A stretch of 3,773 bases of DNA from a virus. Taxonomy: Duplodnaviria; Heunggongvirae; Uroviricota; Caudoviricetes. The number at the start of each line of letters is the position of its first letter. Positions within the stretch are counted from its first letter, which is position 1. Below are positions 1-3,773 of this stretch, piece after piece. The notes beneath the pieces are model-generated. The model was not told where the DNA came from, ran no database searches, and saw nothing but the letters and a program-made list of their open reading frames with translations. The translations under genes and the position numbers were made by a program. The stretch lies in IMG/VR virus record IMGVR_UViG_2690316115_000029; one strand, given 5' to 3'.

Positions 1-1230
1 ATGAGCAGAGCACTTAACAAACTGAGCGATACACAGCTGAGGAAAATCAACGGCACACCCGCCCAAAAAACAGCCTTTCTTAATGACGGTGGAAACCTGA
101 GCGTCAGGCATTCAACCAGTGGCCTTTTAACCTGGTATTTCACTTACAGGGCCGGAACGGGAAGGGGGGCACCACCGGAACGCATTAAGCTGGGAAATTA
201 TCCTGATCTGAGCCTGAAATCAGCCAGGGAAAAAGCCGCCCAGTGTCGCGCATGGCTGGCAGAGGGGAAAAATCCACGTCATGAGCTTAATTACACCGTA
301 CAGGAAGCGTTAAAGCCGGTAACGGTTGGCGATGCGCTCACCTACTGGCTTGAGTCGTACGCAAAGGAAAACCGCGTGGATTATGCCGCCCTGAAAAAGC
401 GCCTTAATAATCACGTAATACAGCACATTGGTGCTATGCCGCTGGATAAATGCGAGCTACGGCACTGGCTGGCCTGTTTTGACCAGGTGGCAAAGCGAAC
501 GCCTGTTACTGCCGGATTCTTGCTACAGACGTGCAAACAGGCGCTTAAGTTCTGCCGGAGGCGGCGCTATGCAATCAGCAACGTTCTTGATGATATGAGT
601 GTGGCGGACGTTGGGAAAAAACCGGATATAAGCGAGCGTGTCTTAAGCACCAAAGAACTTGGCGAATTATTGCAGGCACTGGACAAAAAAATATTTTCCC
701 CTTACTACGTCGCACTAATCCGCCTCCTGATTGTTTTCGGATGCCGGACGGTAGAACTGAGGTTATCGGAGATCAGCGAGTGGGATTTTACCGAAATGCT
801 CTGGACCGTGCCGAAAGAACACAGCAAAACGAAGGTGGCAATATTCCGGCCCATACCGGAAGCAATACTGCCGTTCGTCACGCAGCTGGTGGAGCAGAAC
901 AGGCACACGGGCTTATTGCTGGGGGAAGTGAAACAGGAAACAAGCGTGTCGCAGTACGGCAGATTAGCGCACAGGAGGCTAAAACACCCTCACTGGTCAC
1001 TGCATGACATCCGGCGCACCTTTACAACGATGCTGAACGATTTAGGCGTGGATCCTCACGTCGTGGAGCAGCTTACAGGTCATCAGATGCCAGGGATGCA
1101 ACGAGTCTATAACCATTCCCGTTATCTGGATGCGAAACGTGACGCGCTGGATATGTGGACGGAGCGGTTAGGGATACTGGCGGGAACACATGAAAATGTA
1201 ACCACATTGCCAATAGCCAGAGAAATATAA
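1..1230 (+). CDS. int: Tyrosine-type site-specific recombinase (integrase, P4-like domain architecture)
   Basis: 409-codon ORF from the track, stop TAA at 1228-1230. N-terminal arm-type region (LSDTQLRK...WYFTYRAG...KLGNYPDLSLKSAREKA...WLAEGKNP) resembles integrase N-terminal DNA-binding domains. C-terminal catalytic motifs are visible: GCRTVELR (box I Arg), HDIRRTF (His-x-x-Arg), LTGHQ, and VYNHSRY (nucleophile Tyr region). The ATG is at window position 1, so the true start and any upstream att site or promoter cannot be judged. Confidence 0.93.
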   Translation: MSRALNKLSDTQLRKINGTPAQKTAFLNDGGNLSVRHSTSGLLTWYFTYRAGTGRGAPPERIKLGNYPDLSLKSAREKAAQCRAWLAEGKNPRHELNYTVQEALKPVTVGDALTYWLESYAKENRVDYAALKKRLNNHVIQHIGAMPLDKCELRHWLACFDQVAKRTPVTAGFLLQTCKQALKFCRRRRYAISNVLDDMSVADVGKKPDISERVLSTKELGELLQALDKKIFSPYYVALIRLLIVFGCRTVELRLSEISEWDFTEMLWTVPKEHSKTKVAIFRPIPEAILPFVTQLVEQNRHTGLLLGEVKQETSVSQYGRLAHRRLKHPHWSLHDIRRTFTTMLNDLGVDPHVVEQLTGHQMPGMQRVYNHSRYLDAKRDALDMWTERLGILAGTHENVTTLPIAREI

Positions 1231-1257
1231 TTTTTTTTGCGATTTTTCAGGATGCGG

Positions 1258-1317
1258 ACAACGTGAAACAACGAGACACAACGACGAACAACAAGGAACA
1301 AAATGGAACAACGGGTT
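1258..1317. repeat. Six tandem 10-bp direct repeats, consensus ACAACGnGnA, in exact 10-bp register
   Basis: Read directly: ACAACGTGAA, ACAACGAGAC, ACAACGACGA, ACAACAAGGA, ACAAAATGGA, ACAACGGGTT starting at 1258, 1268, 1278, 1288, 1298 and 1308. The array begins 28 bp after the int stop. Function is unknown. Confidence 0.8.
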
Positions 1318-1332
1318 AAAAATCAGCCATCG

Positions 1333-1470
1333 TAATAACCATTTGATTTTTATAGGTGTACTGTTTTTTTATACACTGGCGAATCACTCTTAAAAATATG
1401 TAAAAAAGGCGTAAAAGTAAAATTTTATGCCTTTGCATCATAATGAATTAAAAGAGTTTTTATTCTCATT
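1333..1470 (+). promoter_or_regulatory. AT-rich putative promoter region for the alpA-like gene (not mapped)
   Basis: Strongly AT-rich stretch between the repeat array and the alpA leader. It contains TTGATT at 1343-1348, several TATA-like hexamers, and an IHF-consensus-like match (AATCAA-N4-TTA on the minus strand, 1336-1348). No -35/-10 pair with canonical spacing could be fixed by eye. Confidence 0.3.
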
Positions 1471-1513
1471 CCCCCTGCTTCTGTAAAACGACCGCCGCCA
1501 GTGTTTGCCATTC

Positions 1514-1566
1514 CACAAACACCCTGACACAATCCGACACAACCCAACCCAATAATCCACCCAATG
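1514..1566 (+). repeat. CA-rich, G-poor leader with GACACAA direct repeats 10 bp apart, upstream of the alpA RBS
   Basis: GACACAA occurs at 1526-1532 and 1536-1542. CCCAAT occurs at 1548-1553 and 1560-1565. Only 3 G in 1511-1570. Lies directly upstream of the AAGGGGG Shine-Dalgarno of the alpA-like gene. Confidence 0.6.
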
Positions 1567-1595
1567 ACTCTTTAAGAAACAACAAAGGGGGAATT

Positions 1596-1784
1596 GTGTT
1601 AAGCACAGATCGCTTTATACGTGAAAAAGAATGTCAGCAACTTACAGGCCTGAGCCGCTCATGTCGGTACCGCCTGGAAAAAGCCGGACAATTCCCATCA
1701 CGGCGTAAGCTGGGCGGTCGTTCCGTTGGCTGGTCTTTATCCGAAGTTCTGGCATGGAAGGACAGCTGCGAGGCAGTTCACTAA
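1596..1784 (+). CDS. alpA: AlpA-family prophage regulator / excisionase-like helix-turn-helix protein
   Basis: 62-codon ORF with GTG start at 1596, preceded by a strong SD (GGGGG at 1587-1591, 4-nt spacer). Stop TAA at 1782-1784. Sequence carries the AlpA/Vis-type pattern: HTH QQLTGLSRSCRYRLEKAGQFP followed by RRKLGGRSVGWSLSEVLAW. Position immediately downstream of an integrase fits this family. Confidence 0.85.
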   Translation: MLSTDRFIREKECQQLTGLSRSCRYRLEKAGQFPSRRKLGGRSVGWSLSEVLAWKDSCEAVH

Positions 1785-1790
1785 TCAGGC

Positions 1791-1809
1791 TGGCGGCACA
1801 CAGCCGCCA
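1791..1809 (+). other. Perfect 7-bp stem / 5-nt loop hairpin 7 nt after the alpA stop, no U-tract
   Basis: TGGCGGC (1791-1797), loop ACACA, GCCGCCA (1803-1809). Followed by CCCATCCACTAAT, so it is not a canonical intrinsic terminator on either strand. Confidence 0.5.
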
Positions 1810-1836
1810 CCCATCCACTAATACAGAGATCTAACC

Positions 1837-3255
1837 ATGAATACTGGATATTCTCCCGAACAAGGGCGGGGCTTCGTTCGTCCTGAAAAACAGAATCTGC
1901 AAAATTTTGCCGAAATTATTCCGGTTATTTCCGGCCTTACTGGCGGGAGTGAAACCAATATTGTTAACGCCAGAGCGTTGCAGATGTTTGATGATAAAAA
2001 GGGAGTAAATTTAACTTACACCCCTGACGGCAATCAGAATATGAGCATTATCTCTGAGTCAGGTTTCTACAAACTAATAAAAACAAAAAGCGCCCCGTTG
2101 CCGGAGCGCCTTTGTGAACAATTAACCAACTGCGCAAAAAATGAATCTGAGCAGTGGGATTATATCAACCATGTGGAGAAGCGCCACAATTGCCGAATAA
2201 CGGGCAAAACAAAGGCCACCCGCTACGGTGGCCCCTCGACACAAGCTACACGTTATCCCCAACGCATGAGCATTGCCAACAATGCCACATTTGCGGCTGG
2301 TGGGCAATGCAATCAGTCTGGTTCAGTTCGTTGCCATACCTGCAATGAGCGCTTTTCCCTGTACTCTTTAAGGAATTGCTCAAGGGCAAAAGCACATGGC
2401 GCGAATCTTTCTGATTCATGCTCTATCTTTCTGCGCCGTCTTTTCCGTGCCGGTGATAATGTTTTGGTCAATTCTTTATCGGTCATTGTGTTGTCCTGCA
2501 TAGCAATGCGCCGTAATACCTTACACCACGGCGCTGATGGTGATTACTCTGGTTCTTTGGTCTTGCGGCGCTGGAGTTCTTCACGTGCGACAGTGACGAG
2601 CTGCCCGATCTCCTCGGCGGCTTTGATTCCGAGTTTTTCCACCTGCGCCAGTGCATCGAGCGAAGAAACCAGGGGATTTTCTCCACTTCCTTCTGCCTGG
2701 CGCCGGGCGATCTCACCGCGTACAGCCGTAACTATAAAATTCGCTTTAGTTTCCCCTGGCTGTAGGGATGCCTCAATGCCACTCACTACTTCATGTGGAA
2801 ATCTGGCATTCAGTTGCTGTGACTTATTGTTAACAGAACTCCTGGACATGTTTGCACCTCCCATTAATAACGGGATGCAGTGTAATACAAAAGTGAATAC
2901 CAAAAAAGACTTGAAATGGTATTCACCTAAATGTAATGTGAATACCACAAGTGCTGATACATGCAATTCAGCAATTGAAACGACGAAGCCCCGCACTGTT
3001 GGAGCAGTAACGGGGCTTCTAACCACCAACGATAACGAGAGTATCGAGGTAGCTATGAGAAATCATACCACACACCCGCAAGGGCGGGACTCGCACAACC
3101 TGAATAAATACATCTGGCGTTTTATCGCCCTGAGCACTGCACAACCGCGCGTGATTACCATTGAGGCCACCAGCGAACAGGAAGCACGCCAGCAATCTCC
3201 GGCTGGCTGCGTGATGGTATTTGCTGCCCGTATTCGTCAGGGGGTAGGCTTATGA
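1837..3255 (+). CDS. Long open frame with Bro-N-like N-terminal domain; only the first ~110 codons look coding (probable truncated gene or remnant)
   Basis: 472-codon ORF from the track, ATG 1837 with no convincing SD. Residues ~50-100 (FDDKKGVNLTYTPDGNQNMSIISESGFYKLIKTKSAPLPERL) resemble the conserved core of Bro-N antirepressor-type domains (D-D-x-K-G ... G-x-Q-x-[ML]-x-[IV]-I-x-E-S-G-[LF]-Y-x-L-I ... S-x-P). From about codon 120 the translation is Ser/Cys/Arg/Ala-rich low complexity. It runs antisense through a minus-strand terminator (2203-2235) and two better-supported minus-strand genes. Confidence 0.3.
   Translation: MNTGYSPEQGRGFVRPEKQNLQNFAEIIPVISGLTGGSETNIVNARALQMFDDKKGVNLTYTPDGNQNMSIISESGFYKLIKTKSAPLPERLCEQLTNCAKNESEQWDYINHVEKRHNCRITGKTKATRYGGPSTQATRYPQRMSIANNATFAAGGQCNQSGSVRCHTCNERFSLYSLRNCSRAKAHGANLSDSCSIFLRRLFRAGDNVLVNSLSVIVLSCIAMRRNTLHHGADGDYSGSLVLRRWSSSRATVTSCPISSAALIPSFSTCASASSEETRGFSPLPSAWRRAISPRTAVTIKFALVSPGCRDASMPLTTSCGNLAFSCCDLLLTELLDMFAPPINNGMQCNTKVNTKKDLKWYSPKCNVNTTSADTCNSAIETTKPRTVGAVTGLLTTNDNESIEVAMRNHTTHPQGRDSHNLNKYIWRFIALSTAQPRVITIEATSEQEARQQSPAGCVMVFAARIRQGVGL
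2203..2235 (-). terminator. Rho-independent terminator for leftward transcription
   Basis: GGCCACC (2214-2220), loop CGCTAC, GGTGGCC (2227-2233). On the minus strand the stem is followed by TTTGTTTTG (plus-strand AAAACAAA at 2206-2213). No T-run follows it on the plus strand. Confidence 0.6.
2313..2501 (-). CDS. Small basic hypothetical protein (57-62 aa), second gene of the leftward cassette
   Basis: Track ORF MQDNTMTDKELTKTLSPARKRRRRKIEHESERFAPCAFALEQFLKEYREKRSLQVWQRTEPD. It starts 42 bp downstream of the Arc-like stop and ends about 80 bp before the minus-strand terminator. The internal ATG at 2486 has an AGGA 7 nt upstream and may be the real start. Against it: weak RBS at 2501 and several rare codons (AGA, CGG, ATA, TTA). 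Confidence 0.3.
   Translation of the reverse strand: MQDNTMTDKELTKTLSPARKRRRRKIEHESERFAPCAFALEQFLKEYREKRSLQVWQRTEPD
2544..2849 (-). CDS. Arc/Mnt-type ribbon-helix-helix DNA-binding protein (putative repressor), 101 aa
   Basis: Start chosen at ATG 2849 (residue 61 of the 161-codon track ORF) because GGGAGGTG lies 5 nt upstream; the track start at 3029 is TTG with no RBS. Product MSRSSVNNKSQQLNARFPHEVVSGIEASLQPGETKANFIVTAVRGEIARRQ... matches the Arc/Mnt N-terminal pattern (beta-strand N-x-R-[FW]-P-x-E-V, then two helices; compare P22 Arc NLRWPREV). Stop TAA at 2544-2546. Confidence 0.7.
   Translation of the reverse strand: MSRSSVNNKSQQLNARFPHEVVSGIEASLQPGETKANFIVTAVRGEIARRQAEGSGENPLVSSLDALAQVEKLGIKAAEEIGQLVTVAREELQRRKTKEPE
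2881..2946. promoter_or_regulatory. Operator-like repeats in the divergent control region: GTGAATACC twice direct, once inverted
   Basis: GTGAATACC at 2893-2901 and 2938-2946; its reverse complement GGTATTCAC at 2918-2926. TGTAAT at 2881-2886 and 2932-2937. The nearest copy is 44 bp upstream of the Arc-like start codon. Promoters for both divergent units must lie in 2850-3054, but no hexamers were confidently assigned. Confidence 0.55.
2985..3019. other. Long imperfect hairpin in the divergent intergenic region
   Basis: GAAGCCCCG (2985-2993) pairs with CGGGGCTTC (3011-3019). Inner ACTG (2995-2998) pairs with CAGT (3005-3008). No clean U-tract on the plus strand; only a weakly T-rich tail on the minus strand. 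Confidence 0.45.
3055..3255 (+). CDS. Small hypothetical protein (66 aa), candidate first gene of the rightward operon
   Basis: ATG 3055 with GAGG 5 nt upstream. Product MRNHTTHPQGRDSHNLNKYIWRFIALSTAQPRVITIEATSEQEARQQSPAGCVMVFAARIRQGVGL. Its TGA stop (3253-3255) overlaps the next ATG (3252) in an ATGA arrangement. It is the 3' end of the 472-codon frame, so it may be an artefact of that open frame. Confidence 0.35.
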   Translation: MRNHTTHPQGRDSHNLNKYIWRFIALSTAQPRVITIEATSEQEARQQSPAGCVMVFAARIRQGVGL

Positions 3256-3485
3256 GCCAGGAAATCACACTACAACAGGCAGCAGAACGCGCCCACCAAA
3301 TCGAAGTTATTTGCGCACTGGCAGAGGATTACCCTGGCATGATGACCGACAGCGAATCAGGGGCAATCATCGGCTTACTTAAACGCCTTAGCGGTGAGGT
3401 CTGCGTATTCCTGAGCGATGAACAGGAAAGAAGAACGCTTATTTCTAACGAAAAAAAATGCGGAGGGGTACACCATGTGCAATAA
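3252..3485 (+). CDS. Hypothetical protein (77 aa)
   Basis: Track ORF; ATG 3252 preceded by AGGGGGTAGG (3239-3248). Composition is ordinary and protein-like. The last 11 nt overlap the next gene. No family recognised. Confidence 0.55.
   Translation: MSQEITLQQAAERAHQIEVICALAEDYPGMMTDSESGAIIGLLKRLSGEVCVFLSDEQERRTLISNEKKCGGVHHVQ
3451..3458 (+). repeat. A8 homopolymer at the junction of the 3252 and 3475 ORFs
   Basis: Read directly (aacgAAAAAAAAtgcgg). In the 3252 ORF it encodes E-K-K (gaa aaa aaa). The downstream ORF is in the +1 frame relative to it. Confidence 0.9.
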
Positions 3486-3717
3486 CATCCGTCCGGACGC
3501 AGCCGCCGCCGCACTCACTACGCTGATGCACGCGCTTATTGATATTGAATGCACGGCAGAGCTTGCACAAAAGGAAGAACGGGAGGAATACACATTGTTC
3601 GCCCTGGAATGTATCCGATACATCGCAACGCGGTCGCTGAATGACGCTAAAAATATTCTTGTTGCTGATTGTGAAAATGGGGGGGGGTTATGCGTGATGA
3701 TCGTTTTAATTCCCTGA
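3475..3717 (+). CDS. Hypothetical protein (80 aa); start moved to the internal ATG with an RBS
   Basis: Track ORF 3418-3717, but ATG 3418 has no SD whereas ATG 3475 has GGAGGGG (3462-3468) 6 nt upstream. Product MCNNIRPDAAAAALTTLMHALIDIECTAELAQKEEREEYTLFALECIRYIATRSLNDAKNILVADCENGGGLCVMIVLIP. Stop TGA at 3715-3717. Confidence 0.5.
   Translation: MCNNIRPDAAAAALTTLMHALIDIECTAELAQKEEREEYTLFALECIRYIATRSLNDAKNILVADCENGGGLCVMIVLIP
3679..3687 (+). repeat. G9 homopolymer doubling as Gly codons of the 3475 ORF and as the SD of the 3690 ORF
   Basis: Read directly (aaaatGGGGGGGGGttATG). Encodes G-G-G in the 3475 ORF, and lies 2 nt upstream of ATG 3690. Confidence 0.9.
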
Positions 3718-3773
3718 AACAAGAATTTTCCGGCGTTCCTGATGATGCGGCTGATGCGCTTTCGTCAATATCT
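3690..3773 (+). CDS. Hypothetical protein, 5' end only (runs off the window)
   Basis: ATG 3690 directly after a G9 run that serves as SD. Reads MRDDRFNSLKQEFSGVPDDAADALSSIS to the window end. Overlaps the 3' end of the preceding ORF by 28 nt. Confidence 0.4.
   Translation, partial: MRDDRFNSLKQEFSGVPDDAADALSSIS

Follow-up and report, generated by a model that had tools for sequence, protein, structure and literature searches.

A 472-codon open reading frame (ORF) runs from ATG to stop at positions 1837–3255, plus strand, of a viral DNA stretch of 3,773 nucleotides (IMG/VR record IMGVR_UViG_2690316115_000029; hereafter the window). With int, alpA, the 472-codon ORF and downstream genes, this DNA makes up the left end of an EcCICFT073-type phage-inducible chromosomal island (PICI). 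Comparison of this ORF with its relatives indicates that the absence of stop codons from the frame is selected, and that it is the openness of the frame, not its product, on which selection acts. By the same comparison the ORF, together with the gene nested in its last 66 codons, appears to be of the P4 eta/kil type, in a differing form. We consider it probable that the ORF is the island's counterpart of eta/kil, and that its translation allows transcripts begun at the alpA promoter to cross a leftward repressor cassette into the replication genes.

An earlier note on this DNA had located the ORF correctly and described it as a chimera, a Bro-N-like head followed by some 350 stop-free codons antisense to other genes. 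That description was right but understated, as the head itself consists of two gene fragments, an AntA N-terminus and the middle of a Bro-N domain. The note had offered three explanations for the frame: that it is open by chance, that it is a genuine long overlapping gene, or that the genes opposite hold it open. It had not recognised the nested Icd-like/kil gene, a second minus-strand gene at 2313–2486 or the P4 eta/kil precedent.

Openness of the frame across loci

The stop-free frame begins at 1822, upstream of the ATG at 1837. Over 2086–3054 it contains no stop, and the other two plus-strand frames contain 17 and 20. The probability of roughly 5e-8 that the earlier note had given for such a run under a uniform random-codon null is arithmetically right, but the relevant comparison is conservation across loci. 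For this comparison loci were anchored only on the 66-residue Icd-like protein, to avoid ascertainment bias.

Among contigs representing one genome per species, 8 of 11 usable loci have 193–310 stop-free in-frame codons upstream of the Icd-like gene, with 6–25 stops in the other five frames. These come from E. ruysiae, Cedecea, Rahnella, Enterobacter, Superficieibacter, Rosenbergiella, Intestinirhabdus and Tenebrionibacter. When any plus-strand frame is counted, an open frame recurs in all 11 loci of other species or genera, over non-homologous cassettes. Most of 80 IMG/VR loci are likewise open in frame, and nearly all the exceptions are still open for 195–500 codons in another frame that ends at or near the Icd start (in locus L076 the run spans 1823–3028 and the Icd ATG lies at 3048).

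The pooled set comprises 61 upstream regions of 1 kb, non-redundant at 97% identity and drawn from about 10 genera; counted conservatively, the sample amounts to the 11 cross-genus loci and to 11 clusters of proteins, described below. For the longest plus-strand open run the median length in the pooled set is 301 of a possible 363 codons, against 82 for the second-best plus frame and 106 for the best minus frame. The longest run reaches 200 codons or more in 55 of the 61 regions and continues straight into the Icd-like gene in 52. In the CFT073 allele unrelated sequence replaces window positions 2575–3012, yet the frame is open for 428 codons. An indel-length test of frame preservation, based on blastn alignments, was discarded as noisy, because compensating +1/−1 gaps appeared even inside int.

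The genes on the opposite strand obey a fixed phase. In every locus, recognisable minus-strand genes share their third codon positions with the plus frame; they encode several ribbon-helix-helix (RHH) types and an 'ERFAPCAFALE' protein, and L089 has four of them under a 500-codon frame. Nulls computed gene by gene inside the ORF, by synonymous recoding or codon shuffling, are circular, and we replaced them with a count independent of the ORF. Cassette genes were searched for without reference to it, which gave 58 unique proteins in 11 clusters, with 3932 codons. On the strand opposite these genes, the phase in which third positions coincide holds 0 stops, and the two remaining phases hold 195 and 180. 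If the genes were synonymously recoded with E. coli codon usage, 1.22 stops per 100 codons would be expected in the observed phase (about 48 in total), and 1.89 and 4.31 in the others. Of the three phases the observed one is therefore the cheapest to keep open, and yet it has been fully purged.

A separate observation concerns the codon-aligned antisense phase, which has 4.96 stops per 100 codons in cassette genes against 1.89 expected from E. coli K-12 usage. Cassette genes therefore use TTA, CTA and TCA codons far above the host average.

Could the frame nevertheless be an accident or a by-product, left behind when the cassette replaced the 3' end of a Bro-N gene, and open by chance or through the genes opposite? 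The head is truly a truncated gene fragment, and for a single cassette gene the probability that the antisense frame is open in this phase by chance is 0.1–0.9. However, ~163 stop-free codons of the ORF lie outside any opposite-strand gene, where the other plus frames have 17–20 stops, and the cassettes hold 0 stops where about 48 are expected. Moreover, starts that combine a Shine–Dalgarno (SD) sequence with an ATG exist in relatives. Because the open frame recurs across genera over unrelated cassettes, we take chance openness, the first of the note's explanations, to be refuted by these comparisons. Constraint from the opposite genes, its third, leaves ~160 stop-free codons outside genes and the SD-preceded starts of other genera unexplained. 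An accidental origin is thus very improbable.

Anatomy of the ORF and constraint on its peptide

The ORF is a composite of an AntA-like fragment, a Bro-N fragment, about 320 codons across the cassette and the nested Icd-like gene. Residues 1–49 (1837–1983, plus strand) are an N-terminal fragment of an AntA-type antirepressor gene, recognised by tblastn to L003, L004 and L014 (73% identity to L003, E 4e-19), relatives that come from E. ruysiae, Cedecea and Tenebrionibacter. The full-length gene of L014 (278 residues) scores 82 bits against Pfam AntA, and only window residues ~24–49 align to the first third of its AntA domain; Pfam AntA (PF08346, AntA/AntB antirepressor) has no match in the window, which places the fragment outside the family by that profile. 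In E. ruysiae L003 two ORFs, at 2347–2658 and 2698–3195, stand in place of a single AntA-like gene downstream of alpA; they are either a pseudogene broken by a frameshift or an arrangement of two genes.

Residues ~47–83 (1975–2085, plus strand) are the middle of a Bro-N domain, cut at both ends. The Bro-N-like head of ~110 codons described in the earlier note is therefore not an intact domain: residues 1–49 are AntA-type, and the ORF scores 15–17 bits against Pfam Bro-N (PF02498; E 0.009–0.03, profile positions 34–85 of 96), below the gathering score of 25.6. The homology of residues 42–83 to genuine Bro-N proteins is nevertheless clear (82% identity to L051, E 7e-20). From 1975 on, the window DNA is 97.7% identical to L051, whose Bro-N domain (55 bits) is cut at the same place. 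Intact Bro-N genes occur in L074 (193 residues, 67 bits, full profile) and L025 (2408–2986). They proceed as KLIARSRKAVTPGTFAHRFSNWVF exactly where the window reads KLIKTKSAPLPERL, which is a translated leftward terminator hairpin; past residue 83 the ORF sequence is that of the hairpin. Comparison with 94 related loci places mosaic breakpoints at ~1885, 1975, 2078–2085, 2295, 2574–2583, 2977–3013 and 3245.

The ~320 codons that follow cross two leftward hairpins, two minus-strand genes and an operator region. Hairpin 1 (2086–2113) is the minus-strand intrinsic terminator that the earlier note had reported, and the plus frame reads it as KTKSAPLPER. On the minus strand (2113..2086) it folds at −20.5 kcal/mol and is followed by a U-tract (UUUUUGUUUUU); on the plus strand it folds at −13.7 kcal/mol with no U-tract. 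Most listed open frames have a terminator-type hairpin of this kind close to their 5' end, read there as KTK.. or KKAAP.. on the plus strand. Hairpin 2 (2213–2234, minus strand) is terminator-like and leftward as well (−18.5 kcal/mol, then UUUGUUUUG).

Both minus-strand genes are real. The second gene of the leftward cassette (2313–2486) encodes a 57-residue protein, ERFAPCAFALEQFLKEY (RefSeq WP_000130015), with homologues in L008, L089 and others that always keep the same phase relative to the plus ORF. The Arc-like gene of the earlier note is likewise real: positions 2544–2849 encode a YlcI/YnfO-family RHH protein of 101 residues, a candidate repressor. Its membership follows from a match to YlcI_YnfO_N (NF041551, 60.8 bits) over residues 9–50, RefSeq relatives use the same name, and GGGAGGTG lies just upstream of its start. 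A tblastn search of the phage collection for homologues of the YlcI-like protein outside such ORFs gave no match.

The divergent region between the RHH gene and the Icd-like gene contains three exact copies of GTGAATACCA / TGGTATTCAC (2893–2902, 2917–2926 and 2938–2947), found by a repeat search, one inverted between two direct. These are probably operators. The copies flank a weak plus-strand promoter-like site picked out by eye, TTGAAA (2911)-17 nt-TAATGT (2934); a consensus promoter scan of 2850–3054 called neither this site nor any other sigma-70 site. The ORF then ends in the nested, in-frame Icd-like gene (3055–3255, plus strand), which encodes 66 residues and has its own GAGG-N6-ATG start. 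It is a homologue of P4 kil (NF033153, 69.9 bits) and an annotated RefSeq coding sequence in E. coli 2017C-4173W12 (L001) and CFT073 (L002).

The peptide itself shows little sign of constraint. Polymorphic sites at codon positions 1/2/3 number 167/111/329 in int and 20/10/44 in alpA, two controls that give the classic coding pattern, and the Icd-like gene also shows a coding pattern (20/24/43). The scan for codon periodicity along the ORF, a check that the earlier note had proposed, is flat over 2086–2312 (45/39/35) and over 2544–2849 gives the distribution expected for minus-strand coding (21/33/73).

Ratios of non-synonymous to synonymous substitution (dN/dS), calculated by the Nei–Gojobori method against 12 diverged alleles, point the same way. 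They are 0.12–0.31 for alpA and 0–0.22 for the Icd-like gene, 0.27–1.1 for the plus frame over 2086–2312 and 0.68–2.6 over 2850–3054, where 11 of 12 comparisons exceed 1. The YlcI/YnfO gene has values of 0.12–0.36 in its own frame, and the plus frame over 2544–2849 is always higher (0.21–0.48). The 57-residue gene also has the lower dN/dS in its own frame in all informative comparisons except that with L019 (1.56 versus 1.24).

AlphaFold2 run on the ORF with a 45-sequence alignment gave a mean predicted local distance difference test (pLDDT) score of 28.6, with nothing above 70. The middle 323 residues contain 12% Ser and 5.6% Cys; the earlier note had called this part low-complexity, whereas it is Ser/Cys/Arg-rich. 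We therefore find neither the purifying selection on the peptide nor the foldable product that mark a functional antisense protein-coding gene. On this evidence the ORF peptide outside the Icd-like gene is unconstrained, and openness rather than product is selected. Since selection acts on the absence of stops and not on the peptide, such an ORF can be built from gene fragments, hairpins, intergenic DNA and the antisense of genes.

These data bear directly on the view that the ORF encodes a functional multi-domain 'Bro network' protein, extending from an AntA/Bro-N head to an Icd-like tail, with working proteins encoded on both strands. In PMC10111431 ORFs of this sort are interpreted as Bro network proteins that swap domains, products of 380–540 residues are annotated by gene callers and by NCBI, and near-complete N-terminal Bro-N domains are present in L051 and P0101 (53–55 bits). 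The frame is indeed selected, and fused to the Icd-like gene in 52 of the 61 regions. Nevertheless, dN/dS is about 1 or higher wherever no opposite gene constrains the sequence; where one does, the plus frame lies above the RHH gene's own frame always and above that of the 57-residue gene in every comparison save one. Codon periodicity is missing from 2086–2312, no segment is confidently folded, the head domains are truncated fragments, and relatives swap the whole middle for unrelated sequence. The product, with its 5.6% Cys, would in part be translated terminator hairpins. We judge a functional Bro network protein unlikely. For the genuine long overlapping gene of the earlier note, this means that one half survives, a frame that is selected, presumably by translation, and the other does not, since protein-level constraint is not seen outside the Icd-like gene. 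True dual coding of the ~1-kb antisense overlap, with an induced and perhaps largely disordered protein ending in Kil/Icd-like and the RHH repressor and its partner encoded opposite, also strikes us as quite doubtful.

A protein search returned 1740 ORFs of this kind, down to 60% identity; many are 380–540 residues long and many carry the name 'Icd-like protein'. Annotation is inconsistent, in that RefSeq has a 66–68-residue Icd-like coding sequence in CFT073 and 2017C-4173W12, and hundreds of other records give the same name to a 385–540-residue ORF. One 425-residue variant, P0015, is present on at least 1000 contigs.

Likeness to P4 eta/kil and a proposed model for read-through

In P4 (NC_001609), vis (8764–9030) encodes a Phage_AlpA protein (73.1 bits). 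Its stop is overlapped by the ATG of eta (8171–8761, 197 residues), which matches Phage_ASH over residues 20–144 and the Icd-like model NF033153 over residues 144–191 (73.3 bits). The last 65 eta codons are kil, which scores 76.1 bits against NF033153, the model that the nested gene of the window matches; P4 Kil and the window's Icd-like protein share 28% identity by pairwise BLASTP (E 0.005). In the account of Forti et al. 1999 given in PMC10111431, the late promoter upstream is the sole source of full-length Eta, transcription termination is reportedly prevented when eta is translated, and Kil is a truncated form of Eta.

The two systems share, in the same order, an AlpA-family gene, a co-directional long ORF that spans the element's immunity or regulatory region, a nested in-frame Icd-like/Kil gene with its own start, and replication genes. 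They differ in several respects. Whereas the eta start overlaps the vis stop, the window ORF starts 52 nt after alpA with a hairpin in the gap; its 472 codons are 2.4 times the length of eta (197); and it carries AntA and Bro-N fragments where eta is Phage_ASH-like. The window ORF also runs antisense through two protein genes, terminators and operators, whereas P4 has a same-strand CI RNA.

The immI operon of P1 and P7 (c4 RNA, icd, ant) offers a further parallel. Translation of an Icd-family gene governs Rho-dependent read-through into downstream genes there; antirepressor (Ant/Bro) genes share the operon with icd, which precedes ant, and the C4 antisense RNA exerts control. We know of no long antisense-spanning ORF in P1/P7 immI, and C4 RNA, present there, was not detected in the window.

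Among Gram-negative PICIs, a 'Bro zone' of domain-swapping 'Bro network proteins' has been described between the integration and replication zones, with extreme mosaicism, an analogy to P4 eta and matches to Bro-N, AntA and Phage_ASH (PMC10111431). The window ORF occupies the same position, between the int/alpA and replication zones of EcCICFT073-type islands. PMC10111431 sees domain-swapping proteins made of 'Bro segments', without mention of opposite-strand genes, whereas the present ORF consists mostly of antisense or intergenic sequence whose peptide is unconstrained. Like the window ORF, the E. coli embedded genes ano and asa are long ORFs antisense to annotated genes; they are single loci with proposed functional peptides (PMC5960689, PMC6294744), whereas here selection appears to act on openness only, which is kept across genera and unrelated underlying genes.

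We propose the following sequence of events. On infection by a helper phage, AlpA would turn on its own promoter. This activation is known for EcCICFT073: AlpA there turns on both its own promoter and a reporter fusion to 'ORF3', the next reading frame, and induction requires AlpA (PMC6092414). RNA polymerase would then have to cross ~1.2 kb antisense to the leftward cassette to reach the icd-like and replication genes. Ribosomes translating the long ORF would cover the RNA and melt the terminator hairpins, and both Rho-dependent and hairpin-dependent termination would thereby be avoided. Convergent transcription may also shut down the repressor cassette. Without induction, any expression of the Icd-like gene would come from a local promoter that the RHH protein controls through the GTGAATACCA sites. 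The existence of a repressor in such islands was stated to be unclear in PMC6092414.

Translation signals in relatives are compatible with such a scheme. The first ATG of the open frame in other genera is preceded by a strong SD sequence and lies 2–8 codons 5' of the leftward terminator hairpin (L003 ggaggaaaacagccATG, L009 aggagataccaaATG, L013 ggaggctattgtATG), and E. coli variants have aaaggggagcatATG, giving MTHKTKATGGG. In L003 the ATG of the long ORF (3188) overlaps the stop of the preceding AntA-like piece.

We infer both the translation of the ORF and the Rho mechanism; a GC-skew profile, a proxy for Rho loading sites, was uninformative (mild C>G only). Several points weigh against read-through by translation. 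The window's own start, cagagatctaaccATG, has a weak SD sequence, a weaker form of ctgaggtataaccATG in L089; it lies 52 nt past the alpA stop with a hairpin between, and P4-style stop/start overlap is missing. In one class of relatives, of which L025 is an example, the 5' part of the open frame offers a TTG but neither an ATG nor an SD sequence. The hallmarks of P4 eta, namely Phage_ASH, CI RNA (Rfam C4) and seqA (isrK), were not found in the window by Pfam and Rfam searches. A pure ribosome shield needs no fusion to the Icd-like gene, yet 52 of 61 frames are fused. Pseudomonas AlpA is a processive antiterminator (PMC7969949), and if this AlpA were one too, translation of the ORF might be dispensable, or the two mechanisms could add. 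Finally, the loci share recombining modules, so the 61 regions are not fully independent.

The fusion raises another explanation, that the frame is open mainly to bring ribosomes to Icd-like/Kil, by fusion or by termination and reinitiation, with Rho protection secondary and the Icd-like gene's own ribosome-binding site masked by local structure. Besides the 52 fusions, shifted frames in L005, L008 and the L067/L076 group end within ~20 nt of the Icd ATG, and two hairpins precede the Icd-like start, the second of them pairing with the GAGG. (In L021, L022, L051 and L089 the upstream frame ends 115–180 nt 5' of the Icd ATG, overlapping the upstream extension of the Icd frame.) It is not clear, however, why coupling should take ~1 kb of frame; the 66-residue gene has a normal GAGG-N6-ATG; and the effect of P4 eta translation that is documented, in the account given in PMC10111431, is transcription read-through. 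Ribosome delivery as the main role therefore seems improbable to us, and read-through across the cassette remains the reading that we favour.

The island, its neighbouring features and wider meaning

A conserved stem-loop whose sequence varies among alleles lies at 2985–3019 (plus strand, tail to ~3030), 36–70 nt 5' of the nested start, and is followed by an invariant CTAACCAC. Alleles differ in stem and loop, and the invariant CTAACCAC(C)AACGATAG always follows (loci L002–L094). Compensatory changes occur at 8 of 9 pairs in 21 loci. C-A mismatches in three alleles would become G-U pairs if the minus strand were folded, so either strand may be the functional one. The stem-loop belongs to no Rfam family; it could confer specificity in the manner of P4 CI/seqC, or terminate the transcription of an antisense RNA. 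Rfam gave no match in the window at E ≤ 1 nor at the gathering score, and hence neither C4 nor isrK; the gathering-score search took in 14 loci, with P4 as positive control (C4 74.9 bits, isrK 60.8 bits). A full C4 antisense RNA (72.7 bits) is present in L039, 3' of the Icd-like gene (3048–3135).

The assignment of the window to an EcCICFT073-type island rests on its int–alpA left end, its near-identity to the characterised element and the roxA site, which is seen in relatives: roxA adjoins the island in both L001 and L002. Matches to the window occur in 1810 of 5426 complete E. coli genomes, the top match being 99.2% identical across 88% of its length, and none of the 5426 covers more than 88% of it in one place. 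CFT073 covers 88% at 98.1% identity. Positions 1–3245 are 99.2% identical to L001, and positions 3013–3769 are 96% identical to L002. As these two relatives match different parts, the window is by this comparison a recombinant of two known alleles, L001-type on the left and CFT073-type on the right, with the switch inside the Icd-like gene.

The plus strand opens with a tyrosine integrase gene (1–1230; Pfam Arm-DNA-bind_3 and Phage_integrase, and RefSeq annotation in L001/L002). The rightward unit begins with alpA (1596–1784; Phage_AlpA, 65.8 bits), which is homologous to P4 vis. The 52 nt that separate the alpA stop from the start of the ORF hold a GC-rich hairpin without a U-tract (1791–1809, plus strand; −17.3 kcal/mol, z = −3.5). 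The ATG of the next rightward gene (3252–3485, plus strand) overlaps the TGA of the ORF (ATGA). Successive plus-strand genes from alpA are separated by 52, −4, −11 and −28 nt, the last being the overlap with the ATG at 3690, and the longest untranslated plus-strand gap from alpA to the window end is thus 52 nt. In L001 and L002 a RepA helicase or DNA primase gene follows on the same strand ~1.2–1.3 kb downstream, outside the window and after overlapping small plus-strand genes. At equivalent coordinates RefSeq annotates an integrase at 1–1230 and an AlpA-type regulator at 1596–1784 on the plus strand, leaves 1785–2312 unannotated, and then gives a hypothetical protein (2313–2486) and YlcI/YnfO (2544–2849) on the minus strand and a host cell division inhibitor Icd-like protein from 3055 onward on the plus strand.

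Three smaller features were also noted. A run of nine G at 3679–3687, directly 5' of the ATG at 3690, could serve as a ribosome-binding site and is likely to be a hotspot for slippage or sequencing error. Five ACAAC-containing repeats with exact 10-bp spacing lie right after int (1258–1322), and a related copy at 1519–1543 sits beside a promoter-like site 5' of alpA; these are possibly arm-type, integration host factor (IHF) or AlpA binding sites. The int-alpA RNA of Rfam (RF02996) lies 5' of alpA in E. ruysiae L003 (1117–1185) and Cedecea L004 (618–686), and the Rfam search found no match to it in the window.

Literature searches on Icd-like proteins, on overlapping genes with ribosome profiling, and on stop-free, antisense and Rho-related terms found nothing on this ORF. 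The present analysis accounts for the widespread conflict between 66-residue and 385–540-residue annotations of the 'Icd-like protein'. It also suggests caution, in that many satellite 'Bro network segments' may be translated antisense or non-coding DNA. Were dual coding true, the locus would hold a phase-locked sense/antisense gene pair kept across at least 10 enterobacterial genera. For the silencing of PICIs and their AlpA switch, the circuit that we propose would consist of an RHH cassette with GTGAATACCA operators, an alpA transcript that crosses it, and a stop-free ORF. More generally, the ORF would be a natural case in which selection keeps a reading frame open rather than conserving its product, and in which genes on the opposite strand obey a fixed codon-phase rule.

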